NCBI RefSeq assembly: GCF_057098645.1
Contig: NZ_CM169472.1
Strand: one strand, 5' to 3'
DNA length: 64,000 bases
The position numbers and the translations under genes are program-made. Shown one piece after another: positions 1,681-45,849 of the stretch (the stretch's first letter is position 1; each line of letters starts with the position of its first letter). The notes beneath the pieces were generated by a model. That model was not told where the DNA came from and did not search any database. It saw nothing but the letters and a program-made list of their open reading frames with translations.

Positions 1681-1825
1681 GAGGCCTTTGCTGCGACTGC
1701 CATGTTCGGGTTGCAGCATCGCACACTCTCCAACATGAAATGGCTAAATGGATTATTGTTGCGTAGGAAGGAACAATAATGATAGTGTTCCCAGAGAAGG
1801 AACGCTACTGAGAGTAAAGACACTA

Positions 1826-2110
1826 ATGAAAATGGCCAATCATCCCCGCCCGGGGGACATTATTCAGGAATCACTGGACGAACTTAATGTCAGCCTGCGC
1901 GGGTTTGCCAGAGCAATGGAAATTGCTCCCTCAACGGCAAGCCGATTGCTGACCGGAAAAGCAGCTTTGACGCCAGAAATGGCAATTAAACTTTCCGTGG
2001 TGATCGGCAGTTCGCCGCAAATGTGGCTGAATCTGCAAAACGCCTGGAGTCTGGCAGAGGCTGAAAAAACGGTGGATGTGTCGCGATTACGTCGTCTGGT
2101 TGCGCAATAA
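1826..2110 (+). CDS. yddM: XRE-family HTH protein, HigA/VapI-like (94 aa)
   Basis: Internal ATG at 1826 gives a 94-aa product; HTH-like region; synteny. Confidence 0.75.
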
Positions 2111-3880: not shown

Positions 3881-6800
3881 TTACGCCTTCTCGATGTTGA
3901 CTAAGAACGCTTTATATTCCGGCGTTTGCGAGTTTGCATCACCGACATTCGGCGTCAGAGTGTTAGCGATATAACCTTTACGCGCGACACCCTCAAAGCC
4001 CCAGTGGATTGGAATACCCACCGTTTCAACCTGCTGACCATTTACATTCAGCGGTTTCAGACGACGCGTTACCACAGCCACCGCGCGGATAAAGCCACGC
4101 TTGCTTGAGACAGTGACACGATCGCCATTATTAATGCCTTTCGCCGCCGCCAGCGTTTCGCTGATTTCCACAAACTGTTCCGGCTGAGCAATTGCGTTGA
4201 GCAATGCGTGCTTGGTCCAGGTGTGGAAGTGCTCGGTCAGACGATAGGTCGTACCCACATACGGGAACTGCTCTTTTTTACCCATCCGCAGTGCGTCTTG
4301 TTCATACAGACGAACAACCGGGTTAGACACCACGTTCGGATGCAGCGGGTTAGTGCCCAGTGGCGTTTCAATCGGCTCGTAGTGTTCCGGGAACGGACCT
4401 TCCGCCATTTTGTTGATGGCAAACAGGCGTCCCATCCCTTCCGGCTGCATGATAAACGGCCCGGTTGGCGTACCCGGTGCGGCATTGCCGAAGTCAGGAA
4501 TATCGTTACCCGTCCACTTGCTGCCGTTCCACTGGATCAGCATCCGTTTCGGATCCCACGGTTTACCGTTGATATCCGCCGAAGCACGGTTGTACAGCAC
4601 GCGACGGTTGAGCGGCCACGCCCAAGCCCATCCCAGCGTATTCCCCAGACCGGACGGGTCGGAGTTATCGAGGTTAGCCATCTGGTTGCCCTGCTCTGTC
4701 CAGCTACCGGTGTAGATCCAGCAAGAAGATGCGGTTGTACCGTCATCACGCAGATGCGCAAAGCTACTCAGCAACTGACCTTTCTTCGCAATCAGCACGC
4801 CATTAGCATCATAGAGATCTTCCAGCGCATAGCCGTTGTTCTCTTTAGCTACTTCGTCAGATTGCGGTTCGTGCGGCTGCTTGTAGTTCCAGCTCATCTT
4901 CATCAGCGGTTCTACGCCTTTACCACCTTCGGCCTGGTACAGCTCGCGCAGGTGATGGTAGATACCCGCCAGAATTTCACCGTCGTTACGCGCTTCGCCC
5001 GGCGCATCCTGACCTTTCCAGTGCCACTGCAGCCAGCGACCGGAGTTAGCAATAGAACCATCTTCTTCAGCAAAGCAGGTCGAAGGCAGACGGAATACTT
5101 CAGTCTGAATAGACGCCGGATCGACATCGTTCGACTCGCCGTGGTTCTGCCAGAAGGTTGAGGTTTCAGTCACCAGCGGATCGATAACCACCATGTACTT
5201 CAGCTTGCTCAGGCAGCTCACCACTTTGTTTTTGTCCGGGAAGGACGCAACCGGGTTAAAGCCCTGGCAGAAATAACCGGTGACTTTGCCTTCATCCATC
5301 ATGTTGAAATACTTGATGACGTCGTAGGTCTGGTCCCACTTCGGCAGCCAGTCATAGCCCCAGTTGTTCTCTTTCTGCGCGGCATCGCCATAGAAAGATT
5401 TCATCAGGCTAACGAAGAACTTCGGATAGTTGCTCCAGTAGTTCACCTGACCAGCCAGCGTCGCTTTCGGCGTGTTCGCTTCCAGATACGACTGCAAATC
5501 AACCTGTTTTTCTGACGGCAGCGTCAGATAACCTGGCAGGCTGGTAGAGAGCAGACCTAAGTCAGTCAGACCCTGAATGTTGGAGTGACCACGCAATGCA
5601 TTCACGCCGCCACCGGCCATACCCATGTTACCGAGCAGCAACTGGATCATCGCCATAATACGGATGTTCTGCGCACCCACGGTGTGCTGCGTCCAGCCCA
5701 GCGCGTACAGGAAGGTGGTTGTGCGATCCGGTGCGCTGGTGGAGGCCAGCACTTCACACACTTTCAGGAAGTCGGCTTTTGGCGTACCACAGATGTTTTC
5801 AACAACGTCCGGCGTGTAGCGGGAAACGTGCGCTTTCAGCAGGTTCCACACACAGCGCGGATGAGTCAGTGTTTCATCGCGTTTCGCATAGCCGTTTTCA
5901 TCGAACTGATAGTTCCAGGACGATTTATCGTATTGCCGTTTTTCAGCGTCGTAGCCGCTGAACAGACCGTCTTCGAAAGCAAAATCATCACGCACCAGCA
6001 GGCTGGCGTTGGTGTAATGCTTAACGTATTCGGCGTTGATTTTGTCGTTTTCGATCAGGTAGCGCAAAACGCCAGACAGGAACGTAATGTCCGTACCGGA
6101 ACGAATAGGTGCGTAAATATCCGCCACAGAAGCGGTACGCGTAAAACGGGGATCGACAACGATCAAGGTTGCATCGTTGTTGTTTTTCGCTTCCATCGCC
6201 CAGCGGAAACCGACGGGATGCGCTTCAGCAGCGTTACCGCCCATTACCATTACGACGTTAGCGTTTTTGATATCCACCCAGTGGTTGGTCATCGCACCGC
6301 GACCAAATGTTGGAGCAAGACTTGCTACCGTTGGTCCGTGTCAGACGCGCGCCTGGTTGTCTACCGCCAGCATCCCGAGGGAGCGGGCAAATTTCTGGGT
6401 CAGCATCCCGGTTTCGTTGCTGGCACCGGAAGCACACAGCATACCGGTAGAAAGCCAACGGTTTACCGTTACGCCCTGCTCGTTCTTTTCAATAAAGTTA
6501 GCGTCACGGTCAGCTTTCATCAGCTTCGCAATACGGGAGAATGCTTCTTCCCAGCTAATGCGCTGCCATTTGTCAGAACCTAGCGCACGATATTCCGGGT
6601 AGCGCAGACGGTTTTCGCTGTTGACGTAATCCAGCAAACCGGCCCCTTTCGGGCACAGCGCACCACGGCTTACCGGATGATCCGGGTCACCTTCAATGTG
6701 ATAAATCGCTTCTCTGGCGTTTTTCGCGCCATCACCCAGGCTATACATCAATAGCCCGCAACCTACGGAACAGTATGTGCAGGTGTTACGGATCTCTTTA

Positions 6801-44442: not shown

Positions 44443-45849
44443 TTACAGCCGTTCTTGAATAAGTTTGCCTAATTGTTTTACCGCCTGTTCTTCACGTTCT
44501 CCCCACTGCCACGCGGTATTAAAACGAAAAAAACGTGACCAGTTTTCACCGGTAGAAAACATTTTACCCGGCGCAATACTGATATGATGCGTCAGTGCCG
44601 CCAGGCTCAATTCGCCGGCATCTAACGGCTCGGGGAGCTCCAGCCAGAGAAAATAACCGCTGTCATTATGATGAATTTTCACTTCCGCAGGCAGATAACG
44701 CAGCAGTGCCTGCCAGGCACGTTGTTTACGTTCCGCAAGCTGGCGACGCAGGCGACGAAGATGGGCGTCGTATCGGCGCGTGGAAAGGTAATCCACCAGC
44801 GCAAGCTGCATCGGTGAGCTGGTGGAAAGCGTACTCATCAACTGCAATCGTTGAATTTTACGTGCATGTTTTCCGGCGGCGACCCAACCAATACGAAAAC
44901 CAGGCACCAGACATTTCGAAAACGAAGAGCAATGCAAAACGCCATCGTGGCGATCCCACGCTTTCGCAGGCAGCGGTTTTTCCCGTCCAAAATAAAGTTC
45001 GCTGTAAACGTCATCTTCAATCAGCGTTACGTTGTACTGATTGAGCAACGCCACCAGTTGTGCTTTTTTTTGCGGCGTTAAGGTAAATCCGAGTGGATTC
45101 TGGCTATTAGTCATCAGCCAGCACGCTTTCACCGGATACTCCTGCAACGCCAGTTCCAGCGCCTGAAGATCTATCCCTTCTTTAACATCCGTCGCTACCG
45201 ATAACGCTTTCAGCCGTAGCCGTTCCAGCGCCTGCAACGCGCCATAGAAACAAGGATTCTCTACTATCACCCAATCGCCCGGTTCAGTTACCGCTTGCAA
45301 ACTGAGGTTTAATGCTTCTAACGCCCCGGCAGTGATGACAATTTCATCAGGAGAAATGGTGATGCCCTGTAAGGCATAGCGACGGGCAATAGCCTGACGC
45401 AGTTCTGCGTTTCCTGGCGGCAAGTTTTCAATCACGCTCATCGCCGTGGCGGTTTTGCTTACCTGCGCCAGCGAGCGGTTTAGTTGTTGGAGGGGGAAAA
45501 GTCGCGGGTCGGGAAAGGCCGAGGCAAACGGAACGACCGACGGATCGCGACTGGCCTGCAACATATCAAAAATATAAGTGTTGATATCGACTGCTTCATC
45601 TCGAGTGACTGGAATGACTGGCGCTTTCGGCATTTTTATTGCCTGTGGCGCAACGTAATAACCCGACTGCGGTCGTGCGATAATATATCCCTGACTTTCG
45701 AGCAACTGATAGGCATGGCTGACAGTCATAAAGCTCATGCCAGAAAGCGCCACCTGGTCACGCAACGAAGGCAAACGATCGCCGGGTTGCCAGATACCCG
45801 TCACAATCTGCTCGCGTAATTGTTCTGCAAGCTGCTGGTATTTTTTCAT
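44443..45849 (-). CDS. ydcR: MocR-type regulator (GntR HTH + aminotransferase domain)
   Basis: 468 aa. Confidence 0.9.
   Translation of the reverse strand: MKKYQQLAEQLREQIVTGIWQPGDRLPSLRDQVALSGMSFMTVSHAYQLLESQGYIIARPQSGYYVAPQAIKMPKAPVIPVTRDEAVDINTYIFDMLQASRDPSVVPFASAFPDPRLFPLQQLNRSLAQVSKTATAMSVIENLPPGNAELRQAIARRYALQGITISPDEIVITAGALEALNLSLQAVTEPGDWVIVENPCFYGALQALERLRLKALSVATDVKEGIDLQALELALQEYPVKACWLMTNSQNPLGFTLTPQKKAQLVALLNQYNVTLIEDDVYSELYFGREKPLPAKAWDRHDGVLHCSSFSKCLVPGFRIGWVAAGKHARKIQRLQLMSTLSTSSPMQLALVDYLSTRRYDAHLRRLRRQLAERKQRAWQALLRYLPAEVKIHHNDSGYFLWLELPEPLDAGELSLAALTHHISIAPGKMFSTGENWSRFFRFNTAWQWGEREEQAVKQLGKLIQERL

Follow-up and report, generated by a model that had tools for sequence, protein, structure and literature searches.

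The closest described relative of the locus considered here is the HigB-like toxin and HigA antitoxin pair of E. coli CFT073 and NRG857c (antitoxin structures PDB 2ICP/2ICT; 'TA20 parE-2/higA-2' in PMC7232551), which lies at the same adhP-fdnI locus. According to Bustamante and Vidal, K-12 and HS have the antitoxin alone at this locus and not its toxin, parE-2, which is TA20 in NRG857c and also occurs in CFT073 (PMC7232551). The plasmid-borne and complete HigB-HigA module of P. vulgaris Rts1 (4MCX, 6CHV, 6CF1, 9CHL) has a toxin-first gene order, and its HigA is an obligate dimer that recognizes two palindromic operators, O1 and O2, over the -35 and -10 elements; HigA alone represses robustly, and HigB does not act as a co-repressor (PMC12266136). 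P. aeruginosa HigA and P. putida GraA (6JPI, 6F8S) share the HigA fold, with 2ICP superposing on the P. aeruginosa protein at an r.m.s.d. of 1.2 A, and have an operator composed of a central palindrome and flanking half-sites to which two dimers are bound; the targets of P. aeruginosa HigA also extend beyond the operon that encodes it, which sets a precedent for a role as a regulator (PMC6987408). Finally, E. coli YbaQ (2EBY) is an XRE-HTH relative of HigA that is solitary in K-12. At the ybaQ locus K-12 and HS have the antitoxin alone, and the AIEC strain NRG857c has an adjoining PF05015 toxin (PMC7232551), and a K-12 ChIP-exo report lists YbaQ as a confirmed DNA binder (PMC6237786).

The window analyzed here, the whole 64-kb stretch of DNA, originates from E. 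coli, with positions 1600-2400 being 100% identical to the O145 strain RM9872. Along the window, maeA (+) and adhP (+, stop at 1680) are followed by yddM (+) and by the convergent genes fdnI, fdnH, and fdnG. The features of the yddM neighborhood are as follows.

1690-1717, plus strand: hairpin 3' of adhP (GCTGCGAC...GTTGCAGC), read from the sequence.
1757-1775, no strand assigned: operator palindrome P1, TGTTGC-N7-GGAACA, a putative site for one YddM dimer over the -35 region, proposed from conserved half-sites.
1776-1785, plus strand: the 10-nt linker between P1 and P2, ATAATGATAG, a putative promoter element.
1786-1803, no strand assigned: operator palindrome P2, TGTTCC-N7-GGAAC, a putative site for a further YddM dimer, around the transcription start, proposed from conserved half-sites.
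1804-1825, plus strand: the 22-nt leader from the operator to the yddM ATG, delimited by allele comparison.
1826-2110, plus strand: yddM (higA), an intact 94-aa HigA-family XRE-HTH antitoxin (ORF, TIGR02607, Pfam HTH_3, match to PDB 2ICP/2ICT, PGAP).
2111-2137, no strand assigned: terminator-like hairpin directly 3' of the yddM stop, the first copy of a 27-nt repeat, read from the sequence.
2138-2315, no strand assigned: REP pair (BIME) and the second 27-nt terminator hairpin (2289-2315), from the direct repeat and sub-threshold REP-derived Rfam matches.

The initial annotation had described a 94-aa gene in these coordinates, a 145-bp gap after adhP, and a terminator/REP cluster downstream, and all of this was correct on recheck: the ATG lies at 1826, the TAA ends at 2110, and the gap (1681-1825) measures exactly 145 bp. 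A 120-aa version of yddM from the in-frame ATG at 1748 was rejected, as it crosses the operator and brings no extra domain, and both PGAP and the crystallized 94-aa protein start elsewhere. The 227-bp stretch between yddM and fdnI (2111-2337) holds the REP pair/BIME between the two identical 27-nt hairpins, such that 2111-2137 and 2138-2315 together form one 178-bp tandem unit (direct repeat D1, spacing 178 nt). The copy number of this unit varies by strain, with none in Ecol_867, 504838, and H240, one in the window and in LP-26, and two in one K-12-like strain, and in every case the array closes with one extra terminator copy. Searches for known RNA families in 1500-2500 returned sub-threshold REP-derived Rfam matches only. 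Further along the window, the program-made ORF list breaks fdnG at 6341-6343 (-), in the context ...NQARV*HGPTVASL..., at an in-frame TGA, which is the known selenocysteine codon of formate dehydrogenase-N and not the mark of a pseudogene.

Compared to CFT073/NRG857c, the window's locus has an antitoxin identical at 92 of 94 residues (98%) and the same operator half-sites, but has neither the toxin gene (279 nt) nor the ribosome-binding site of that gene, has a strongly diverged upstream non-coding region, and carries the YddM substitutions E26G and T93A. These two changes (codon 26 at 1901-1903 and codon 93 at 2102-2104) also distinguish the window allele from the common E. coli protein, the commonest form of which is identical to the crystallized "antitoxin HigA" of CFT073. 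Residue 26 is invariant across all of the Escherichia and Citrobacter homologs examined, and the window allele departs from this. AdhP in the window (adhP 673-1680) likewise lacks one residue and differs by five substitutions (Y16D, VT>A, P>L, H>R, and H336R) from its counterpart in a K-12-like strain, and the protein changes in yddM and adhP of the window are unusually many for the neighborhood.

The assignment of YddM to the HigA family is clear. The NCBIfam equivalog profile TIGR02607 (antidote_HigA), the cut-off of which is 47.7 bits, scores the protein at 91.4 bits (E 2.4e-26) and aligns to it over all but the last of its 81 positions (1-80). The protein also has the single Cro/C1-type HTH domain (Pfam HTH_3, residues 14-65) expected of this family, the members of which measure about 95-105 aa. 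Beyond the CFT073 structure, it is homologous to P. vulgaris HigA (4MCX), P. putida GraA (6F8S), P. aeruginosa HigA, Coxiella VapI, and E. coli YbaQ, with 3TRB among the homologous PDB entries, and the RefSeq/PGAP label reads "yddM: HigA family addiction module antitoxin". The HigA/VapI-like call of the initial annotation, which a profile search showing no kinship to HigA-type antitoxins would have overturned, is thus borne out. By profile, fold, and identity, YddM is a true HigA-family antitoxin, with the TIGR02607 signature, a single HTH domain of solved HigA fold, and a palindromic operator at the level of sequence pattern. The one family trait missing in the window is a toxin-first gene of HigB/RelE fold directly upstream; 1354 E. 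coli genomes have such a gene at this locus, as do other genera at the orthologous loci.

No such gene was found in the window. With the cognate HigB of toxin-bearing E. coli as the query, tblastn gave no match anywhere in the 64 kb (the lowest E was 0.39), and 1500-2400 yielded nothing beyond trivial matches, 4-12 residues in length. The neighboring small ORFs (antisense 1864-2253, 2076-2228, and 1677-1823) had no Pfam match. The initial claim that no HigB/RelE-like ORF lies nearby therefore stands for both strands, and neither tblastn nor an alignment of the leader to the ends of higB recognized a degenerate toxin remnant in the flanks. The window does not hold a complete type II HigB-HigA module, with both genes in one operon; 22 nt separate the operator from yddM. 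What it holds is the arrangement of an orphan antitoxin, where the antitoxin is intact, the toxin is absent nearby, and orthologs elsewhere are paired.

The paired state is found in other strains of the same species. The adhP-yddM interval of E. coli LP-26-E1-261 and MS8345 holds a 92-aa ORF whose 3' end shares 1 nt with the yddM ATG; its product is a PF05015 HigB-like toxin, which matches the P. vulgaris HigB endoribonuclease with an E-value of 8e-32. Of 5426 complete E. coli genomes, 1354 (~25%) have this higB and 5412 have yddM, and in 545 of the 1354 carriers the toxin gene is frameshifted by an identical 1-nt deletion at codon 33, such that the toxin ends after 35 residues. Carriers of the frameshift include Ecol_867 (where higB is a pseudogene) and EC958-type strains, all with the antitoxin intact.

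A cross-species survey of the toxin-antitoxin pair, using one genome per species, identified full-length higB directly upstream of a yddM homolog in E. albertii, other Escherichia, at least 11 Citrobacter genomes, Buttiauxella, Chimaeribacter, Erwinia, and one Enterobacteriaceae genome, with more distant pairs in assorted MAGs, so that a HigB-like toxin beside yddM, which the initial annotation had suggested looking for, occurs in both allelic and homologous loci. In E. albertii, Citrobacter, Buttiauxella, Chimaeribacter, and Erwinia, the toxin gene again encodes 92 aa and shares 1 nt with the start of yddM. fdnI adjoins the pair on the right throughout Escherichia and Citrobacter, and in one Enterobacteriaceae genome. 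Every outgroup species examined has either higB at the corresponding place or a higB with visible degradation. Separate decay of the toxin beside an intact antitoxin was seen in Citrobacter sp. FP75 (internal deletion), C. portucalensis and Xenorhabdus lircayensis (frameshifts), and X. khoisanae and Chimaeribacter californicus (5' truncations). As the pair is found in E. albertii, Citrobacter, and the other outgroups, it is therefore ancestral at the locus and the solitary state is derived. By this polarity, yddM is an orphan by descent, and the lineage of the window appears to have lost higB. The orphan state itself is already known from the PGAP label, the solved structure, and the survey of Bustamante and Vidal (PMC7232551); the present analysis makes the modest additions of outgroup polarity, a conserved operator before the orphan, a census of three allele classes, and the inversion of a palindrome.

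The operator offers a second line of comparison among these loci. The full element, TGTTGC-N7-GGAACA-N10-TGTTCC-N7-GGAAC(A), spans 1757-1803 of the window and is found as a single copy in each of 28 loci from six genera, and an alignment of 25 loci from six genera showed that the P1 half-sites and their spacing are kept while the N7 spacer has diverged; in C. amalonaticus the central spacer is 1 nt shorter. Between the window and the toxin allele of E. coli the 47 nt of the operator differ at 10 positions, each of which lies in a spacer, such that the 23 half-site positions are unchanged (P = 3.8e-4). Within the 64-kb window the pattern GTTSC-N7-GSAAC was observed 3 times against an expected 0.33, two of the matches being P1 and P2. 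The third, at 45222-45238 (GTTCCAGCGCCTGCAAC), is probably a chance match.

In the toxin-bearing outgroup loci this operator precedes higB, not higA. The distance from the last half-site to the start codon is 12-20 nt for higB in toxin-bearing loci versus 22 nt for yddM in the window. Judged by this arrangement, yddM now sits in the place of higB behind the same control region. The linker together with T1786 holds a -10-like hexamer, GATAGT (1781-1786), and the linker consensus 'tgata.t' is kept across genera, with Chimaeribacter and Erwinia having an extended -10 form (TGCTATACT or TGCTATGAT). A sigma-70 scan of 1600-2400 found no consensus promoter, and the yddM leader has only a weak and distant Shine-Dalgarno-like GAGAG. 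The sigma-70 holoenzyme is reported to bind the adhP-yddM area in vitro (PMC3946193), and this site, combined with the conservation of the linker, suggests that GATAGT is a promoter element of yddM.

The 22-nt leader takes the place of the higB ribosome-binding site and the 279-nt higB of toxin-bearing alleles. When aligned globally and locally to either end of higB, the leader scored no better than shuffled sequences (P 0.24-0.34), and its sole match to the 3' end of higB is in the last bases, CACT(A/G) before the ATG, where the His-stop of the toxin overlaps the yddM start. Junction models based on microhomology at ATGAA or CAC were set aside, since the leader has no significant similarity to the ends of higB.

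Homology between toxin-bearing and toxin-less alleles ends directly after the hairpin at 1690-1717, which is common to all alleles and constitutes the left edge of the differing segment. Beyond this edge, the sequence upstream of the operator block (1718-1825 of the window against 1119-1266 of the toxin-bearing locus L001) is barely alignable. Divergence between the two allele types amounts to 21% in the operator block, compared to 1.4% in yddM and ~3.7% in adhP (96.3% identity), and by these values a simple recent deletion does not account for the upstream divergence. The toxin-less alleles themselves vary in the P2 spacer (CAGAGAA, CAGTGAA, TGGTGAA, and TGATGAA). In about 1061 of 5426 E. coli genomes (~20%), including O111 RM9322 and H240, P1 is the exact reverse complement of the P1 in the window (TGTTCCTTCCTACGCAACA against TGTTGCGTAGGAAGGAACA), an inversion of a 19-bp quasi-palindrome (1757-1775; 1249-1267 in L044, and L046) that exchanges which half-site is imperfect. 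Either template switching at the quasi-palindrome or recombination with a diverged donor could be behind the upstream divergence and the P1 inversion. A plasmid origin of the toxin-less upstream segment was rejected, as the only matches in plasmid collections were E. coli chromosomal DNA or mislabelled chromosomes.

The allele census comprised 1354 toxin-bearing genomes (545 of them frameshifted), about 2990 toxin-less genomes of the window type, and about 1060 toxin-less genomes with P1 inverted, and these three classes together make up essentially all of the 5412 yddM-positive genomes. Two sequences deserve separate mention. In E. coli O157:H7 TR01 (L005, 1402-1546) the 145-bp adhP-yddM spacer is a mosaic: its left part is of the toxin-type allele, its middle contains half of the toxin-less operator, and its right part reproduces the final 46 nt of higB (100% identity). 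This could be a real recombinant or an artefact of assembly or polishing. A 214-bp low-coverage contig labelled Clostridium sp. CMCC3677 (L033) matches the E. coli toxin-less operator and the beginning of yddM with 97% identity, and is almost certainly E. coli contamination of the Clostridium assembly.

Despite the varied surroundings, yddM itself is retained. The gene is present in 5412 of 5426 genomes (99.7%), ~75% of which are without the toxin, and is full-length at ≥95% identity in 5408 of 5426. Toxin-less K-12-like strains encode the same YddM as toxin-bearing E. coli and E. albertii do, the genes differing by 5-13 synonymous changes and 0 nonsynonymous ones, and pN/pS relative to Citrobacter is ~0.1. 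These substitution ratios indicate that yddM is under strong purifying selection, and the zero nonsynonymous changes combined with near-universal retention argue against a decaying relic.

Four other explanations of the locus were weighed against the loss of the toxin from an ancestral module. A history in which the toxin-less state is ancestral, yddM has always stood alone, and higB was inserted later in some lineages would agree with the toxin-less alleles being the majority in E. coli and with the strong divergence of their upstream region from the toxin allele, but this is a very improbable history, which the outgroup loci contradict, given the higB or degraded higB at the same position in all outgroup species examined, the placement of the outgroup operator before higB and not higA, the CACT(G/A)ATG kept by the toxin-less alleles, in which the higB His-stop overlaps the yddM start, and the independent decay of the toxin in five other species in addition to the frameshift allele within E. 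coli. The least credible explanation is a partner from a different toxin family concealed beside yddM, for example the antisense 129-aa ORF at 1864-2253 or the small ORFs in 2076-2228. The program's ORF list does contain ORFs of such sizes, but the candidates are without Pfam matches, the antisense ORF crosses the REP/terminator repeat that is absent from many strains, and strains with a 50-bp yddM-fdnI gap have no space for such a gene; this strain-to-strain absence of the sequence effectively refutes a hidden partner.

The two remaining explanations concern why the gene is still present. That yddM is a functionless remainder not yet lost after the deletion of the toxin is improbable. The missing toxin, the absence of a strong promoter and Shine-Dalgarno, and the two amino-acid changes of the window allele, one at an otherwise invariant residue, would fit such a relic, but the conservation of the full-length gene in 5408 genomes, the lack of nonsynonymous change among the K-12-like, toxin-bearing, and E. 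albertii alleles, and the half-sites kept amid scrambled spacers all speak against it, as do DNA binding by ChIP-exo (PMC6237786) and the hypersusceptibility of the Keio yddM mutant to epetraborole, a phenotype from a mutant that was not complemented (PMC12457515). It is also possible, if unlikely, that YddM is kept as an antitoxin in trans, neutralizing HigB-type toxins that arrive on plasmids, phages, or by recombination with toxin-bearing E. coli, and in this manner guarding the cell against post-segregational killing. In toxin-less K-12-like strains the protein matches the partner of HigB at every residue (100% identity), toxin-contact positions included, it is retained in a population of which ~75% has no toxin, and HigBA-type pairs do occur on enterobacterial plasmids. 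Conversely, the plasmid HigA homologs are only ~35-43% identical to YddM, which makes cross-neutralization doubtful, and they were dismissed as close relatives of YddM on the same grounds (43% identity at most). Anti-addiction of this kind would be compatible with toxin loss from an ancestral module as an added function.

The reading that best accommodates the locus, and which we consider very likely, is that yddM is the antitoxin of a chromosomal HigB-HigA module from which the toxin was deleted, while the operator was kept and the self-repressing protein was retained. In this proposed history, the ancestral adhP-fdnI locus would have consisted of a promoter with a four-half-site operator followed by higB (92 aa), the product of which would be a RelE-fold homolog of ribosome-dependent mRNases, and then higA, with a 1-nt overlap between the genes. 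In the lineage of the window, the whole of higB and its ribosome-binding site would have been deleted, leaving 22 nt between the operator and the yddM start. Dimers of YddM on P1 and P2, straddling the weak -10, would be expected by homology to repress transcription of yddM itself, and with the toxin gone, YddM would remain as an HTH DNA-binding protein that holds its own level low and may bind a few further sites on the chromosome. The initial annotation had left the choice between an orphan antitoxin and a stand-alone regulator, a view that is supported, and the two are not exclusive of one another: by origin YddM is an orphan antitoxin, and it has probably been retained as a DNA-binding protein that stands alone and regulates itself.

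The proposal of autorepression through P1 and P2 draws on P. vulgaris HigA, which represses alone and shares five of its six listed DNA-contact residues with YddM (S23, T37, S39, R40, and K45 are identical, and T34 is Ala in YddM). The two proteins are dimeric XRE-HTH regulators of the same type (phmmer E 2.5e-18, residues 7-87), both promoters are overlaid by two palindromes, and the toxin-first order of the P. vulgaris module is that of the ancestral yddM locus. The operator sequences of the two systems differ, and the spacing does as well, with the O1/O2 contact bases 6 bp apart and the operators 22 bp apart in P. vulgaris, compared to N7 palindromes 29 bp apart at yddM; P. vulgaris HigBA also failed to bind the control DNA that the study names 'E. 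coli hig' (PMC12266136). P. aeruginosa HigA and GraA are further removed, with distant sequences (E 1e-8 to 1e-11), a TTAAC/GTTAA half-site, and toxins that have been retained, and YbaQ, a protein of 113 aa at another locus, has distant similarity only (E 6e-8).

Retention of YddM as a self-repressing DNA-binding protein appears most likely by these comparisons, and several independent reports touch on it. The K-12 ChIP-exo study places YddM among six confirmed transcription factors with a derived binding motif (PMC6237786), and a 2025 CRISPRi/a single-cell preprint describes new regulatory connections for yddM. Along with the RNA polymerase binding and the epetraborole phenotype, these reports are consistent with the proposed autorepression by YddM and are not conclusive. 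Domestication of YddM after the loss of the toxin, whether to regulate transcription in the host or to confer immunity to HigB toxins that enter the cell, may be entertained as a tentative and somewhat unlikely extension.

The practical consequence is for annotation, beyond which the significance is slight: yddM should be annotated as the surviving half of a HigBA module and not as an unexplained lone regulator, and there is no toxin to seek beside it in genomes of the phylogroup A/B1/E type. The locus is also a clean natural case of a common pattern, in which toxins decay repeatedly while the antitoxin and operator persist, with the routes of toxin loss seen here including full deletion, a 1-nt frameshift (545 genomes), and independent truncations in Citrobacter, Xenorhabdus, and Chimaeribacter. 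If domestication were true, it would explain a frozen protein and four half-sites amid scrambled non-coding DNA, including the P1 inversion, and the yddM locus is a convenient system for asking why an orphan antitoxin is kept.
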